The position numbers were made by a program, and so were the translations under genes. A stretch of 64,000 bases of DNA from Escherichia phage UPEC03. The stretch lies in sequence record MW250785; one strand, given 5' to 3'. Numbering within the stretch: the stretch's first letter is position 1; each line of letters begins with the position of its first letter. Under the pieces are notes generated by a model. That model saw only the letters and a list, made by a program, of their open reading frames with translations. It did not search any database and had not been told where the DNA came from. Shown piece by piece: positions 13,625 to 64,000 of this stretch.

Positions 13625-13857
13625 TCCGTTTTAATACCATGTCGGTATGCGTCAATCCCCAGCGGGGTAATCAGCAACCATGCTTTCGAATTATCGTGAT
13701 AGCCCGTTACCCTTCGAGCGTAACCTTTTTGAATCAGGGCATCACGCCCTGATTTGCTGGGTACGTCATCGAAATCTAAGTCTAGCACCTTAGTTGCATA
13801 TCCGTAAAGTTTATACAGAACATCAATTTCAGCGCCGGACAATTTAGGATACATCAT
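13615..13857 (-). CDS. Hypothetical protein (80 aa)
   Basis: Coupled ORF, overlaps both neighbours by a few nt. Confidence 0.4.
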   Translation of the reverse strand: MMYPKLSGAEIDVLYKLYGYATKVLDLDFDDVPSKSGRDALIQKGYARRVTGYHDNSKAWLLITPLGIDAYRHGIKTEWH

Positions 13858-14855
13858 TTGTAATACCCCACAACATGATCGCGGTATACGCGTTCGATGA
13901 AATCGTTCCAGAATTCGCGGTCAACTTCTTTCGGATATGTTGAAATCGCTGCAAGCCGTTCGACTTCGCCCATGACTTCTTCCAGCTTTTCCTGTACGGT
14001 TGCGAACGGTACGCCGCCAGCTTTAACCAGTTTCAGGAATGCGCTATCAGGCAGAGGATAAACGATATCACCATCTTTGTAAATCTGGATCAACTGCATA
14101 CCACCGCGCAACGCGTGACTTAAAGCCTTCCAGTCGATGCCGTTGTTGGCTTCTGCTTGTCGTGCGCGTTCTCCGTATTCATCCCAGAGTTTGTACACTG
14201 ACTTACGCATTTCATCGGCTTTGATCGTGAACTGGAATTTACGCCCCAGCACTTCATAGAAGTCCTGACAACCAGATTTCATTGTCGTGTCGGTAACGAA
14301 TCGGCAGAACTCGTTTGTAGGGAAACGATTCTTGATGTCAGACACTTTCACTTCACGCGTATAGCGTTTCATATCTGGTGTGAATTCCTGAATACCACCG
14401 ATCGTTTCGGTTTCTTTCAGTACATCGACAACTTCGCGCAGTGCAGCCAGTCGGGAACCTTTCACACCATATTTTGCGGCTTGCTTGCGAACATAACCGA
14501 ACAGGCCAGTTAGTTCAGTGGTGTAAAAACGCCAGCGGTTAGCGCGGATATACTGCCAGATTTCAGAGTTAGCGATCAGCTTGTCATCCGAAGCGTGAAG
14601 CATATCGAGCGCTACGGTATCACCATCACACGCAAGGCTGATAAACTTAGTCAGACTATACAACTGACGATCAACGTCGTCTACGGTGTTTTTAGAGCTT
14701 TTATCGCCCGTGCTGGTGTCGATAGACTTCTTCGCAGTGCCTAACAGGATTTCGCGAGGATGAGGGAGATAGATCCCTTTGTAGTCTTTATCGCTTGTTG
14801 GTGTTTCCAGTCCGTAAAGATGGGATCCAAAAATCATTTCAGTAATCATTTTCAT
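13854..14855 (-). CDS. Pol-beta superfamily nucleotidyltransferase-domain protein, function unknown
   Basis: N-terminal GSHLYGLETPTSDKDYKGIY matches the G[GS]x9-13Dx[DE] NTase signature; ATG at 14855 (listed 14870 start is TTG) overlaps HNH stop as TAATG. Confidence 0.6.
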   Translation of the reverse strand: MKMITEMIFGSHLYGLETPTSDKDYKGIYLPHPREILLGTAKKSIDTSTGDKSSKNTVDDVDRQLYSLTKFISLACDGDTVALDMLHASDDKLIANSEIWQYIRANRWRFYTTELTGLFGYVRKQAAKYGVKGSRLAALREVVDVLKETETIGGIQEFTPDMKRYTREVKVSDIKNRFPTNEFCRFVTDTTMKSGCQDFYEVLGRKFQFTIKADEMRKSVYKLWDEYGERARQAEANNGIDWKALSHALRGGMQLIQIYKDGDIVYPLPDSAFLKLVKAGGVPFATVQEKLEEVMGEVERLAAISTYPKEVDREFWNDFIERVYRDHVVGYYK

Positions 14856-15613
14856 TATACAAATCTCCAATAAAACCCTTTATGAGTTTTTCTTTTACCG
14901 TTACAGCATGAACTTACATGCCCTTTGTTATACCCCATTTCAACGGCTTCCACAATACCACCATTTAAAATAGTTTCTCTTTCTGTTTTGATACATTTCA
15001 TAATCAAAGGTTTTATCAATTCCGTCTTCTTTTGTGAAATATTAGCTAATGCAATTACATTTCTGATATCAGATTCACTCATTAAATCAGAAATCTTCTT
15101 TCTTAACCATACATAGCCTTGACTTTTGGCAAGTTTGCCGGAGCAACATTCATGAATATGACTAGGGTTAAATCCACGCAATTTCATTTCTTGCCGACCG
15201 CCTAATATGATAATCTCGTCTCCTGTTTCAAGGTTGAATCCGACAACTGGAATTATTTGCCGTTCCGACATTTTCTTTCTCGCTTCTTTCGTGAATATTG
15301 TAAGAGATTTTAATTTTCTCGCGTCGCTCATTTGCGAAGATGTCGTTTTGTATTTCTTAGTATTATGAGACATACGGAAAAAAGCATATCTCATTTTATC
15401 ACCAGCATACTTAGCAAGTAGATGATGAGCAAGATAATGCTCTTTATATGTTAAATATACTAAATTTTCGGGTTCATCAGTACCACCTAATGACTTAGCA
15501 ACGATATGGTGTATATCATAACCGCGCTTTCTATACTTTTTCGAGTAACCTTTAGGTATATCTCTTCTTTTTGCCAATGTAATTAGTTGGTCGTAAATAC
15601 GCTTATAGTTCAT
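14855..15613 (-). CDS. HNH homing endonuclease-like protein
   Basis: GYDIHHIVAKSLGGTDEPENLVYLTYKEHYLAHH HNH motif; ATG at 15613 with AAAGGAGAG SD (listed start is GTG). Confidence 0.75.
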   Translation of the reverse strand: MNYKRIYDQLITLAKRRDIPKGYSKKYRKRGYDIHHIVAKSLGGTDEPENLVYLTYKEHYLAHHLLAKYAGDKMRYAFFRMSHNTKKYKTTSSQMSDARKLKSLTIFTKEARKKMSERQIIPVVGFNLETGDEIIILGGRQEMKLRGFNPSHIHECCSGKLAKSQGYVWLRKKISDLMSESDIRNVIALANISQKKTELIKPLIMKCIKTERETILNGGIVEAVEMGYNKGHVSSCCNGKRKTHKGFYWRFV

Positions 15614-15743
15614 ACACTCTCCTTTAGGCGTATTTATCACTTAAAATCCGAACACGGTTTCCATAATCATTTTCATCAGAATTCAACCTTTAATGTTTTT
15701 GCGATCCCGCGCAATTCCGCGGTAGTAATAACAGGGATCATAA

Positions 15744-59403: not shown

Positions 59404-61434
59404 ATGATTTCAAAACTTAACCCGTTACCTAAGATCCCGTTTGTTGATGGAGTCCCTACGGACTCCACGCAAACAAAGATCCAATGGATTATTAACGGCG
59501 AAACTCTCAATGGTGCAAACACCAAAACCACTAATGAGGGTTCATTAAACAGAAGCGGTGTTATGGTTCAACAGAACGCCGTGCAACTGGAACAAAACAC
59601 AACTACACAGACATCGAAGATCAACGAAGTCATTGATCAGGTTAACCTCATTAGTGAAAACCTTGCCGCAATCTCTGATGAAAGTGTAATTGAAAAACTG
59701 GATCAGGTTGTTTCTGATGTAGCAGTTCTTAAAGTCGATATGACTGGTGTTCAGAGTACCTTAGCAGGTCAAGTGCTCAAAGTACAGGACATTGAAAAAG
59801 AAATTGGTGTATGGGATTCGACAACCGATCCTAAACACCGCACGATCCGTAAAGATATCATTTTCCTGAAAGGTGAAATGGGCGCGTATCCGGGCTTTAA
59901 CGAAAACGGTGATGTAGATCCTTCGTCTACTGGCTCCGGCATGAAATACAAAATCATGACGAACGCACAGGCTATTTCTATTCACGAAGGGCGTATTACC
60001 CGCCTCGAAGATGATTGGGCTAACTCAGACGTAGGACATCTAACCGATGAAGTGACCGATCTGCGTAACGAAATGGGGCCGAAACATTTGGCAACCTTCG
60101 AATCCGTATACGTGCGCTTAAATGGCATTGGGACGCGTTTAACTGGTATCGATAACGAACTGACAAGCATCAACCAGTATATCGGTCGTAGCGGTTCTGG
60201 TGGCACTGGTAGCATCGTTAACCGTATGAGTGTAGCAGAACAGAACATCGTTACTCTACAAACTCAGGTAAACGATCCTGTTGTTGGTGTTCTTCCTCGC
60301 GTGATCCTGCTCGAAAGTTCTGTTGGTAACTCTCAGGTTCCTGGCAGTATCCGTTATGATATCAGTACCATGAAGCGTGACATTGGCGATCTTAGTATGA
60401 TTGTTGGTGAATCAAGCGACGATGGACTGCGCGGAGAAATGGCGCAGGTATTGACGGATATCGGTACTGACGTACAGCCAACGAGCATAAAAGGCCGTAT
60501 TCTGAACCTGGAAAACACCCAGCGTGACGATCATCAATCACTCGTTGATGTTACTGCAATTGTTGGTAATACATCGTCTGGTCTGGTAGCTGCTAATATC
60601 GCGATGGGTAAAGCCGTCTACGGTGATGCAGCAAGTTCCGATCCGTTCCTGAAAGACGGTATTCAGAAAACTGCTCGCGATAGTAAAGCTGCAATCGGCG
60701 TGAACACTACTGGTTCTGAAACTGGTTTGTATAAACTGATTTCCGATCTGACTGCTCGCGTTGCTGCTCTTGAAGGTGGTTCTGGTGGTGATCTCGCGGC
60801 CCGTGTTACCGATCTGGAAAACAACAAAGCATCACATGATGACGTTGCGGCGGCTCTGGTTCCATATATCACAGAAGTTGAAGCAGACGCGAAATATGTT
60901 GCAAAAACTGTTCCTCTGGTGTTCGATCAGAACATTTCTGGAAACAGTAATTACACCGAAGGAAACACAATTTCGTTCAGCGTAGTTGTTTCAGGTGGCG
61001 CTACCCCTTACACTTACCAGTGGAAGAAAGATAACGTCAACGTAGGAACTGATAGCGCAACATTCTCTAAAGCTGGGGCAACCTCTGCTGATGATGGTGT
61101 GTACAAAGTTGTCGTGACTGACGCGGAAAATACTGTAATTACTTCCAACGAAGTGACTGTTACCGTTTATCCGGCGCTGACACTAAGCACTGATATTGCT
61201 GACGTTACTGTAACTACTGGTGATCCATTAACGCTTCATGTTGTGGCAACTGGTGGTAAAGCTCCATACGCGTATCAGTGGAATAAAGACGGTTCTGATT
61301 TGACTGGTGAAACTACAGATACTCTGACAGTAGCAACGGCGGCAAGCGAAAACGCTGGCGTGTACTTTGTTTCTGTTCTGGATGACCTGGGTAATTCCAT
61401 CGAATCAACTCACGCAACCGTTACGGTTCAATAA
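59404..61434 (+). CDS. wac: Fibritin (wac, neck whiskers) with two C-terminal Ig-like domains
   Basis: N-terminus LPKIPFVDGVPTDSTQTKIQWIINGETLNGANT parallels T4 fibritin; long coiled-coil; C-terminal tandem repeats GGATPYTYQWKKDNVNV / GGKAPYAYQWNKDGSDL. Confidence 0.75.
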   Translation: MISKLNPLPKIPFVDGVPTDSTQTKIQWIINGETLNGANTKTTNEGSLNRSGVMVQQNAVQLEQNTTTQTSKINEVIDQVNLISENLAAISDESVIEKLDQVVSDVAVLKVDMTGVQSTLAGQVLKVQDIEKEIGVWDSTTDPKHRTIRKDIIFLKGEMGAYPGFNENGDVDPSSTGSGMKYKIMTNAQAISIHEGRITRLEDDWANSDVGHLTDEVTDLRNEMGPKHLATFESVYVRLNGIGTRLTGIDNELTSINQYIGRSGSGGTGSIVNRMSVAEQNIVTLQTQVNDPVVGVLPRVILLESSVGNSQVPGSIRYDISTMKRDIGDLSMIVGESSDDGLRGEMAQVLTDIGTDVQPTSIKGRILNLENTQRDDHQSLVDVTAIVGNTSSGLVAANIAMGKAVYGDAASSDPFLKDGIQKTARDSKAAIGVNTTGSETGLYKLISDLTARVAALEGGSGGDLAARVTDLENNKASHDDVAAALVPYITEVEADAKYVAKTVPLVFDQNISGNSNYTEGNTISFSVVVSGGATPYTYQWKKDNVNVGTDSATFSKAGATSADDGVYKVVVTDAENTVITSNEVTVTVYPALTLSTDIADVTVTTGDPLTLHVVATGGKAPYAYQWNKDGSDLTGETTDTLTVATAASENAGVYFVSVLDDLGNSIESTHATVTVQ

Positions 61435-61468: not shown

Positions 61469-62392
61469 ATGATTACTAACAACCCTGAACAACTGAAAGA
61501 TGAAATTCTTCGTCGTCTGGGCGCACCAATCATCAAAATCGAAATCACACAAGACCAGATTTATGACTGTATTCAACGTGCTCTCGATTTATACGCAGAA
61601 TATCATTACAACGGTACGAACAAAAGTTATATTATTCTGACACTGGGCGAAGATAACCCACGTAACGTTTTCGATTTGAGCAAAGAGCATATTTTCGCGA
61701 TCACAAAAGTATTGCGTACAAACATGGGTTCACTGACCACGATGGACGGTACAGCGGTTTATCCGTGGTTTACCGATTTCCTGATGGGGCTTACTGGTGG
61801 TTCTCTGGGCGGTCGCTGTGCATCAAGCGTGTACGGTATGAACGCATACGGGGCTGATATGGGTTACTTTACCCAGATGATGTCTTATCAGCGCTCAATG
61901 CAAGATCTGCTGGCTCCGCTGCCTGATTACTGGTTCAACGATGATACTGGTCAGTTCTGCGCGTGGGGGCAGGTGAACAACGGCGATATTCTTGTTCTCG
62001 AAGCGATGGTTCGTTCCTTCGTTGATGTTCCTAGCTCCGTAGGAAGCATCGCAGGATACGCTACGGCGGGTTCTAACGCAGTGGAAGACCAATCCATAGC
62101 CGACATCTACGATAACCCTTACAACAGCGTTGTGGGCGGTGTACGCGCGGGACAGGGTTCAACTGTTACGGGCGGAACGTCCGCATATAACAACCGCTGG
62201 GTAAAAGACTACTCTACAGCGCTGGTGAAAGAGATCAACGGACAAATTCTGGCTAAATTCCAGGGGATGCAATTGCCTGGCGGTGTTTCTCCAGATGGTA
62301 CGCGATTAATTCAGGAAGCAGAAACCAAACTGCAAAGTCTGCGCGATGAACTGATTTCGATGTCTGACGCAGTACCGATCATTATGGTGTAG
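61469..62392 (+). CDS. 13: Neck protein gp13
   Basis: 307 aa (T4 gp13 is of similar size); follows wac. Confidence 0.6.
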   Translation: MITNNPEQLKDEILRRLGAPIIKIEITQDQIYDCIQRALDLYAEYHYNGTNKSYIILTLGEDNPRNVFDLSKEHIFAITKVLRTNMGSLTTMDGTAVYPWFTDFLMGLTGGSLGGRCASSVYGMNAYGADMGYFTQMMSYQRSMQDLLAPLPDYWFNDDTGQFCAWGQVNNGDILVLEAMVRSFVDVPSSVGSIAGYATAGSNAVEDQSIADIYDNPYNSVVGGVRAGQGSTVTGGTSAYNNRWVKDYSTALVKEINGQILAKFQGMQLPGGVSPDGTRLIQEAETKLQSLRDELISMSDAVPIIMV

Positions 62393-62400
62393 GGGGAATA

Positions 62401-63147
62401 ATGCAAAACTGGGATGAAAGTTTATTCGCTCAGTTGTCTACGGGGGAAGGGGTTGATCGCAACTTAAAGGATCAGGTCACTAACCCGTATGTAAACTGGT
62501 ACAAATACAACCCGACACAACAGCTACACGATTCACTGACAGCAGAATCAATCCAGATGAAATCGCCTGATATGTATTACGTCCGGCGCGACTTCGTGAA
62601 TATTGATAAGATCCTGGGCGAAGACCGAGAATCCAAATTTACGAAGTCATGGAAAATTGCTGCATATATTGAATCGTATGCCAACTATGAAGGACAACGA
62701 GATTTCTTTAGTAAATTTGGTCTGAGTTCAAACGATGAAATGACGCTGGTAATTAACCCTCGTTTGTTCGCACATCAAACTGATGGTGGTATTCCTGTTC
62801 TGGGGGATCTGGTTTATTTCCCTATGGACAATAGCCTGTTTGAAATTACGTGGGTAGAAGCCGATCCGTTCTATCAGTTCGGTGATCGTCCTCAACGCAA
62901 AATCAACCTTGCGAAATTCATCTACACAGGTGAAGAACTGGCTCCTGAATTGCAGCGAAATGAAGGAATCCACATTGAACCTGATGCAGAACTGGATCTC
63001 GAACCGATTCGAAATCTTGACGGGCTGGCTGATATTAACATTGAACAGTACGAAGAAGACAAAGAATTTGAAAGAGAAGGTGATGAATTCATCGAATCTT
63101 TTGATGTTGTCAACGGACGCGGTTCACCGTTTGCAAGTCTGCCATAA
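62401..63147 (+). CDS. 14: Neck protein gp14
   Basis: 248 aa (T4 gp14 about 256 aa); follows gp13. Confidence 0.6.
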   Translation: MQNWDESLFAQLSTGEGVDRNLKDQVTNPYVNWYKYNPTQQLHDSLTAESIQMKSPDMYYVRRDFVNIDKILGEDRESKFTKSWKIAAYIESYANYEGQRDFFSKFGLSSNDEMTLVINPRLFAHQTDGGIPVLGDLVYFPMDNSLFEITWVEADPFYQFGDRPQRKINLAKFIYTGEELAPELQRNEGIHIEPDAELDLEPIRNLDGLADINIEQYEEDKEFEREGDEFIESFDVVNGRGSPFASLP

Positions 63148-63150
63148 ATA
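63144..63150 (+). promoter_or_regulatory. Candidate late promoter (ATAAATA)
   Basis: cATAAATAcg overlapping the gp14 stop, upstream of ORF 63157-63930. Confidence 0.3.
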
Positions 63151-63156
63151 CGTTAT

Positions 63157-63930
63157 ATGGGTATAGGCGGAAGTCTATACCCTCTTCGAAGAGGATTTTA
63201 TGATATGGTTGCAAAAATCTCTATAGAACAAAGAGAACATCAATTAAAAGAACGTTGTGCGGAATTAGAACTATCTTTTGATGGATGGGTAGACCAATCA
63301 GCGATCACAAAATATTCAAAGTTTTATGTTGTTTGCAGTAAAGGACATAGAACAGAAAAACAGATCAAACCATTTGTCAACAAAAGTCGTCCAAACGGAT
63401 GTTATTTGTGTTCCCCTAAGATGAAAATATCAAAGGAAAACAGAATCAAGGAAATCAAAACTCTTACAGATTCAATTGGATATACATTCATAGATTTCGT
63501 TGGGGTGTATAAAGATGCACACACAAAAATATCAATGGTTTGCGATAAAGGCCATAATTGGGATGTAAGTATAGTTGCTTTTCTCAATCAAGGTCATCGC
63601 TGTAAAAAATGCGCAACGTCTGGGTTCAATCCGAACAAACCAGCATACGTATACGTACAATCACTATCTGGAAAATTTCTGAAATTTGGGATAACCAACA
63701 GAACACCAAAGAAAAGAATGTGTGCGCAATCAAATAAATCCGTTTATAAACACGAACTGGTTTATCAAAAATTATTCGATAAAGGTATTGATGCAATGAG
63801 TATTGAACAGAAGATCAAACAATCTCTTATTTGTGGCGTAGTTGATAAATCAGATATGATGGATGGATATACAGAAACAACAGATATATCCAATTACGAT
63901 AAACTGTTGAATATTATAGAAGGAGTATAA
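63157..63930 (+). CDS. AT-rich zinc-finger protein, possible homing endonuclease (GIY-YIG-like motif in C-terminal half)
   Basis: CSKGH...CYLCS and CDKGHNW...CKKCATSG pairs; KPAYVYVQSLSGKFLKFGITNRTPKKR resembles GIY...YIG...R; codon usage unlike flanking neck genes; start may be internal ATG at 63205. Confidence 0.4.
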   Translation: MGIGGSLYPLRRGFYDMVAKISIEQREHQLKERCAELELSFDGWVDQSAITKYSKFYVVCSKGHRTEKQIKPFVNKSRPNGCYLCSPKMKISKENRIKEIKTLTDSIGYTFIDFVGVYKDAHTKISMVCDKGHNWDVSIVAFLNQGHRCKKCATSGFNPNKPAYVYVQSLSGKFLKFGITNRTPKKRMCAQSNKSVYKHELVYQKLFDKGIDAMSIEQKIKQSLICGVVDKSDMMDGYTETTDISNYDKLLNIIEGV

Positions 63931-64000
63931 AATTGTTTGGATACTGGTATAATAGTTCGCTGCGTAACTACATTGTTCTTATGGGACAATTGTTTAACCA

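Follow-up and report, generated by a model that had tools for sequence, protein, structure and literature searches.

What is the AT-rich open reading frame that separates the neck gene gp14 from the next late gene of Escherichia phage UPEC03, and how did it come to lie there? A preliminary description of the 64,000-nucleotide stretch of sequence record MW250785 that is analysed here (the window) had picked out this frame for its composition, its cysteine and histidine motifs and a C-terminal stretch reminiscent of GIY-YIG nucleases. The encoded protein begins with a tandem pair of CapR-type zinc modules and ends in a GIY-YIG-fold domain that retains the active-site Tyr, Arg and Glu. We are confident, from sequence comparison, that the frame is best read as a free-standing homing endonuclease gene (HEG) of the T5orf172 branch of GIY-YIG nucleases, inserted between gp14 and gp15 in an RB16-like phage of the T4 type. 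Genes of this kind have been described before, and several phage genomes already carry an annotation of this one; the ORF is an ordinary member of a described family and not a new kind of thing.

The gene order in this part of UPEC03 is wac, gp13, gp14, the ORF and gp15 (Table 1). The frame is on the plus strand and lies, as the preliminary description had it, between gp14 and the next late gene, which proved to be gp15. By megablast this region groups with the RB16/RB43 T4-like phages of the genus Pseudotevenvirus, with identities of 96.5% to Klebsiella phage phi1_146015, 96.1% to Cronobacter phage leE and 91.9% to RB16. The same gene occupies the same gp14-gp15 site in the Pseudotevenvirus phages RB16, Lw1, leE, Cronuts, JC03 and phi1_146010/15, whose proteins are 97.7-99.2% identical over the 257-aa frame (tblastn) and show no substantive difference from that of UPEC03 (RB16p203 and leE gp211 among them). 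GenBank labels these orthologues 'endonuclease', 'putative GIY-YIG nuclease family protein' or 'hypothetical protein'.

Table 1. Positions, within the window, of the features of the gp14-gp15 region and of a second low-GC gene
Feature	Position	Strand	Remarks
Second low-GC gene, probable homing endonuclease gene	14855-15640	-	261-aa protein; Pfam HNH E=0.002; I-HmuI NUMOD-like domain E=3e-6
wac (fibritin)	59404-61434		C-terminal Ig-like domains
gp13	61469-62392		
gp14	62401-63147		Pfam T4 neck protein, E=1e-86
gp14 stop codon	63145-63147		TAA
Backbone intergenic sequence	63148..63182	+	After gp14 stop; outside the insert
Long ORF	63157-63930	+	257 aa
5' leader of inserted cassette	63183..63204	+	Short hairpin, Shine-Dalgarno, out-of-frame ATG 63200
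Homing-endonuclease-like CDS	63205..63930	+	241 aa plus stop; equivalent to RB16p203, leE gp211
Zinc module 1, CapR/DUF4379-type	63205..63420	+	Residues 1-72; Pfam CapR, internal repeat
Putative ligands, module 1			C44 (63334), H48 (63346), C66 (63400), C69 (63409)
Zinc module 2, CapR/DUF4379-type	63421..63621	+	Residues 73-139
Putative ligands, module 2			C113 (63541), H117 (63553), C133 (63601), C136 (63610)
T5orf172/GIY-YIG-type nuclease domain	63622..63927	+	Residues 140-241
Key nuclease residues			Y150 (63652), K160 (63682), R171 (63715), E201 (63805), E224 (63874)
Gene 15 (tail sheath stabilizer), 5' end	63933..64000	+	Cut by window end; TTG start

The unusual composition that had drawn attention to the frame is borne out by measurement. 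Counted from ATG 63205, the ORF has a GC content of 33.5% and a GC3 of 0.26; the window averages 44.4% GC (sd 2.6% over stretches of equal length), and GC3 is 0.49 in gp13 and 0.41 in gp14. It falls among the lowest 0.06% of equal-length stretches and is the lowest-GC stretch of the window. The extent of the open frame was given correctly in the preliminary description, but its start was probably placed 48 nt too far upstream, and the gene most likely begins at ATG 63205 and encodes 241 residues. This start is favoured because 241 aa is the length annotated for RB16p203, for leE gp211 and for a metagenomic orthologue of 73% identity, because a Shine-Dalgarno sequence, AAGAGGA, lies at 63189-63195, and because the segment 63157-63204 contains a hairpin that is present also in relatives that lack the gene. 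A start at 63157 was rejected on the length of the orthologues and on the inclusion of this hairpin.

The hairpin in question (63159-63182) has a 10-bp stem, GGGTATAGGC-GGAA-GTCTATACCC, lies directly 3' of gp14 and is not followed by a T-run. The sequence 63148..63182 recurs in phage Nando, a relative with an empty site, and in part in vB_EcRAM-01; the hairpin is thus backbone intergenic sequence, since empty-site relatives have it as well. It is kept in empty-site relatives, with variant forms in vB_EcRAM-01 and in the metagenomic relative, and could serve the backbone as a transcript-stability or processing element. The consensus of T4 late promoters is TATAAATA, and the sequence CATAAATA at 63143-63150, which overlaps the gp14 stop codon and is likewise present at empty sites, resembles it; this likeness to the consensus is the basis on which it may be named a candidate late promoter.

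The two paired cysteine and histidine motifs of the preliminary description were both found, in the N-terminal half. C-x3-H...C-x2-C occurs as C44/H48/C66/C69 and as C113/H117/C133/C136 (putative ligands, in the numbering of the 241-aa protein), in two modules of about 70 residues each that are homologous to one another (BLASTP of module against module, E=1e-6). The Pfam CapR homology domain PF21817 matches two stretches of the protein with E=8e-18 and 64.8 bits against a cut-off of 24.2, the best of them being residues 84-137, and the DUF4379 treble-clef zinc finger matches weakly (E=0.007). C113, C133 and C136 are nearly invariant in an alignment of homologues, and in the AF2 model the zinc module has the order helix-strand-strand-strand-helix.

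The C-terminal half is the part for which the preliminary description had offered a tentative nuclease assignment, from a stretch reading YVYV...GKFLKFGIT...R. This stretch is present, and in an alignment of 22 family members Y150, K160, G162, I163, T164, N165, R171, E201, G221, E224 and T225 are invariant; R171, E201, G221 and E224 remain so across 126 homologues. The Tyr of the 'GIY' element on strand beta1 is kept as Y150 (in YVY), which is invariant in alignments of both 22 and 19 sequences. The profile search that had been proposed as a check, with the lack of any nuclease-fold match as the refuting result, did return such a fold. A profile built from the 126 sequences matches the GIY-YIG UPF0213 proteins 1zg2 (E=0.005) and 1ywl (E=0.02), with Y150, R171 and E201 in register with their Tyr, Arg and Glu, Y150 corresponding to the Tyr of YVYIL in 1zg2; the assignment as a GIY-YIG-like nuclease is upheld. 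HMMER profiles of the small alignments found nothing relevant among PDB sequences, and only the 126-sequence profile reached GIY-YIG proteins. The domain is modelled at a pLDDT of 96.5, with the predicted GIY-YIG fold of a three-stranded antiparallel sheet in the order beta1-beta2-alpha1-beta3-alpha2-alpha3. PHROG 681, 'endonuclease', matches the protein with E=4e-62.

In two places the domain departs from the canonical motif. The 'YIG' Tyr on strand beta2 is replaced by Lys160 (LKFGIT against YTGYT in 1zg2), so that only the Gly is retained; K-I/F-G is the usual form in T5orf172-type domains. Helix 1 (TPKKRMCAQS) contains neither His nor Tyr after R171, where I-TevI and UvrC have the residue in the general-base position. 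The UPEC03 protein itself matches none of Pfam T5orf172, MUG113 or GIY-YIG at E<=1, its C-terminal 100 residues have no direct Pfam match, and it has no NCBIfam match. When the 22 family members were scanned singly, however, five matched T5orf172 (best 1.9e-5), six MUG113 and four GIY-YIG, three models which we take to be members of the Pfam GIY-YIG clan. The homologue in phage JSE scores 17.3 bits against the T5orf172 model, below the cut-off of 20, and among homologues of the C-terminal domain there are some with precomputed PF10544 or PF13455 annotations or the NCBI name 'GIY-YIG nuclease family protein'. The protein thus stands at the edge of the Pfam family, below the model cut-off itself; it would function as a member, but its formal membership of T5orf172 (PF10544) rests on transitive homology.

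The C-terminal position of the nuclease motif had been considered atypical, a view that does not hold for this family. T5orf172 HEGs consist of N-terminal CapR, DUF723 or DUF4379 zinc fingers, often repeated, and then a C-terminal T5orf172 domain (PMC8096241, PMC10448857), and the arrangement is atypical only in comparison with T4 Seg proteins and I-TevI. In those enzymes the domain order is reversed, with the nuclease at the N-terminus; their DNA-binding modules are of the NUMOD/HTH kind whereas those of the UPEC03 protein are tandem zinc modules, and their canonical YIG Tyr is a Lys here. Pfam scans of the protein found neither PF01541 nor NUMOD, the marks of the Seg type.

Hundreds of homologues with conserved motifs exist. 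The best match outside the genus is Orf141 of phage T5 (T5.141, YP_006969; 36.6% identity over 94% of the length), whose gene lies between those for the tail assembly chaperone and the tape measure protein; the JSE homologue lies between genes 2 and 3. Netter et al. tied the CapR+T5orf172 HEGs of phage ICP1 to T5 Orf141 (PMC8096241). Like the UPEC03 protein, T5 Orf141 and ICP1 Gp165, Gp130, Gp174, Gp121 and Gp53 have N-terminal zinc modules and a C-terminal T5orf172 domain and are free-standing among essential structural genes. They differ in belonging to other host phages (Demerecviridae, ICP1), and the nuclease domain of the UPEC03 protein, in contrast to theirs, is too divergent to reach Pfam T5orf172 alone. 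In the tally of Petrov et al. (PMC2993671, Table 5), RB16 has one 'other GIY-YIG' HEG, which may be the gp14-gp15 gene.

The comparison of related phages, also proposed at the outset, was made with the RB16 gp14-to-gp15 segment as query, and the 60 relatives listed were sorted by the size of the locus. A locus of 2354 bp contains the T5orf172-type gene (10 records from 7 phages). At 2236-2254 bp the site holds instead a gene for a 204-aa protein annotated as MobE or homing endonuclease (RB43, Miller, YI837, Taquito and others), which has an HNH-like motif with NUMOD3 repeats and is unrelated to the UPEC03 protein. Loci of 1798 and 1860 bp contain internally deleted remnants of the MobE-like gene (Fraggle, phi1_146002), and in about 35 records the locus is 1627-1650 bp long and empty. 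Empty, occupied, swapped and remnant states together make up the textbook pattern of a homing endonuclease. The remnant in Fraggle_ER53 encodes 57 aa, with the N- and C-termini of the MobE-like gene joined in frame; both it and the phi1_146002 remnant retain the gp15 5' allele of occupied sites and offer a snapshot of HEG decay.

Relative to the empty-site phages, the cassette (about 63183-63930) is an insertion. The empty site of Nando reads ...CTATACCC followed directly by ACAACCCATACAGGAAAATAAAAATGTTTGG, which puts the left boundary of the insert after window position 63182 and the right boundary immediately ahead of the gp15 start. The gp13-gp14 flank of the window is 95.5% identical to that of Nando, compared with 96.5% to 91.9% for the HEG carriers; this flank is about equally near to empty-site genomes and to carriers, and the distribution of the gene therefore cuts across the backbone phylogeny.

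Transfer of the gene between diverged phages has also been recent, and the first ~106 bp of gene 15 travelled with it. RB16 and leE differ at 6 positions in the 726 bp of the gene (99.2% identical), while their flanking genes are 86.5% (gp13), 90.9% (gp14), 90.2% (gp15) and 80.4% (gp16) identical. The island of near-identity runs from 8 nt before the start codon to 106 nt into gp15, corresponding to window position 63197 to about 64038. Synonymous divergence (dS) between the window and RB16 amounts to 0.021 for the gene and to 0.67 for neighbouring gp14. Recent lateral transfer in which a short flank is co-converted leaves just this picture.

Within the transferred tract, nucleotides 34-72 of gp15 exist as two haplotypes with about 10 mostly synonymous differences between them. 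The empty type (Nando, GAP161, leB type) reads AATTATATCGTCCTGATGGGGGCGCT(A/T)TTTAATCAC; the occupied-type allele begins at window position 63966. The haplotype carried with the gene was found in 20 records, each of which has the T5orf172-type gene, the MobE-like gene or a remnant of the latter; no empty-site record has it. We infer from this a target of the enzyme within the empty-type allele, near the beginning of gene 15, and resistance of the carried allele. The allele does not identify the enzyme that selected it, since it is common to the MobE-like carriers. It is possible, if rather doubtful, that the T5orf172-type and MobE-like enzymes have one short recognition sequence in common, at the beginning of gene 15, and that the allele is an immunity allele shared by both. 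Should this be so, two HEG families would have converged in nature on one target and exchanged cassettes there, and the E. coli phages RB16 and RB43, which can be crossed, would allow a first direct test of T5orf172 homing.

The start codon of gp15, an essential gene, varies with the occupant of the site. Phages with an empty site (Nando, vB_EcRAM-01) have ATG and those with the endonuclease gene TTG (63933-63935 in the window; RB16, leE), while downstream of the MobE-like gene or a remnant of it the codon is ATT, in which case some annotations begin gp15 16 codons late. The upstream codon is taken as the real start because of the conserved N-terminus MFGYWYNSS... At the locus of the divergent metagenomic orthologue the start remains ATG.

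The upstream end of the cassette is common to both kinds of occupant. The RB43 MobE gene (RB43ORF216w) and its relatives in Miller, YI837 and others share with the UPEC03 gene the gp14-gp15 site and the 22-nt leader, and end just before the gp15 start; MobE differs in being an HNH nuclease with NUMOD3 motifs, unrelated to the UPEC03 protein. The same leader precedes the MobE-like HNH gene in YI837, phi1_146002 and Fraggle, where translation starts at the equivalent of ATG 63200, five nucleotides before the start of the T5orf172-type gene at ATG 63205. Both genes have the left junction, hairpin, Shine-Dalgarno sequence and ATGATAT in common, and similarity between them ceases precisely at the start codon; the MobE start survives in the window as the opening of an out-of-frame mini-ORF of 8 codons. 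To judge from these junctions, it looks as if one HEG ORF replaced another inside a fixed expression cassette. The leader contains a palindrome, CCTCTTCGAAGAGG (63181-63194), the 3' arm of which is the Shine-Dalgarno sequence AAGAGGA. An intrinsic terminator was considered at this place and rejected; with a stem of only 5 bp and a ribosome-binding site within it, the palindrome is more plausibly an element of translation control. Hairpins that occlude the ribosome-binding site are described for T4 mobE and I-TevI.

A model of homing at this locus would run as follows. When a carrier and an insert-free relative infect the same cell, the zinc modules would recognise a particular sequence close to where gp14 meets gp15, most likely in the first ~100 bp of gene 15 in its empty-type allele, and the nuclease domain would then cut the recipient DNA. 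Recombinational repair would copy the carrier's gene and the adjacent gp15 sequence into the recipient. Both the insertion and the gp15 allele that goes with it would shield the carrier. Expression would probably occur on late transcripts through gp13-gp14, and the ribosome-binding site within the small hairpin may limit translation.

The protein is under purifying selection, as the low dN/dS indicates. The 73%-identical orthologue likewise lies between gp14 and gp15, in a metagenomic T4-like phage that is more distantly related (gp14 81% and gp13 76% identical), and against this orthologue dN/dS is about 0.05 for the whole gene and 0.06 for the N-terminal half, values of which only the lowness is meaningful and not the exact figure, because synonymous sites are near saturation (pS 0.745, dS 3.7). 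In the C-terminal half dS is saturated and yields no ratio; pN and pS there are similar to those of the N-terminal half. Such selection fits an active enzyme. A low dN/dS over so long a divergence exceeds what a selfish, decaying gene needs, and some benefit to the phage, such as the exclusion of competitors, is therefore possible.

That the nuclease is kept mainly for such a benefit, through marker exclusion or action against satellites, with homing secondary, is nevertheless improbable. The idea draws on this purifying selection, on the contribution of T4 HEGs to the exclusion of T2 (PMC2993671), and on Odn (ICP1 Gp88), a T5orf172 nuclease that serves its phage and whose activity in vitro depends on a catalytic Glu, the counterpart of E201 (E180A; PMC8263062). 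Odn has the same type of catalytic domain as the UPEC03 protein, with Arg and Glu conserved and a helix 1 devoid of His/Tyr (PMC8263062). It differs in its RepA_N DNA-binding domain, captured from a satellite, and in being an anti-satellite weapon and not a homing element; the UPEC03 protein has the usual zinc fingers of HEGs and no captured replication-initiator domain. Moreover, PADLOC returned no match, and the gene is absent from most relatives. Marker exclusion is in any case compatible with homing, being the same cleavage viewed from the loser's side, and an Odn-like defensive role is possible as an addition to it.

More improbable still is a domesticated DNA-binding regulator whose zinc modules repress or tune structural genes in the manner of CapR, with an inactive or irrelevant nuclease domain. 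CapR of the Vibrio cholerae PLE satellites has the same type of zinc-dependent DNA-binding domain (PF21817), requires its cysteines for DNA binding and is a repressor derived from this very HEG family (PMC8096241). The position of the gene among late structural genes and its low dN/dS across a long divergence at one site would also agree with regulation. However, CapR is a transcriptional repressor that lacks the nuclease domain, and its motif is CxxC...CxC as against C-x3-H...C-x2-C. A CapR-like function is unlikely because the domain is intact and conserved in UPEC03, confidently modelled and with its Arg and Glu invariant in 126 homologues; about 35 close relatives do without the gene, and the sharp island of near-identity records lateral spread of the gene itself. 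An HNH-type endonuclease, suggested by a match of PHROG 559 'HNH endonuclease' to residues 50-189 (3e-13), or a chance ORF in AT-rich DNA can practically be dismissed, for the PHROG 559 match spans only the shared zinc-finger modules, the protein has neither a Pfam HNH match nor an HNH motif, and a chance frame would not have hundreds of homologues, conserved motifs and a confident fold.

A homing endonuclease of the T5orf172/GIY-YIG type with CapR-type zinc fingers, starting at 63205, is thus the correct label for this gene. Several GenBank records still read 'hypothetical protein', and beyond correct annotation the significance of the gene is small. The gp14-gp15 site is of use in that a single genus shows it empty, occupied, swapped and decayed, and in that the transferred tract has sharp limits and gene 15 offers a candidate target region. 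Homing by T5orf172 HEGs had no experimental verification as of PMC10448857, which makes the E. coli phages RB16 and RB43 a convenient test system.

Further observations concern the rest of the window. No paralogue of the protein was found within the 64 kb by tblastn, and the HEG-carrying relatives have one copy of the gene each. The sole other stretch with a GC content below 37% is the minus-strand gene at 14855-15640, which adjoins a gene for an RlaP-type nucleotidyltransferase (13854-14870) and, judged by its domain matches, probably encodes a second, unrelated homing endonuclease. The fibritin homologue encoded by wac has two C-terminal Ig-like domains (Pfam Ig_3, I-set, Ig_2) beyond the Fibritin_C region. 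Between RB16 and leE, wac is the most diverged gene of the region, at 78% nucleotide identity, and in the metagenomic relative the gene at the wac position encodes a pectate-lyase-like domain.
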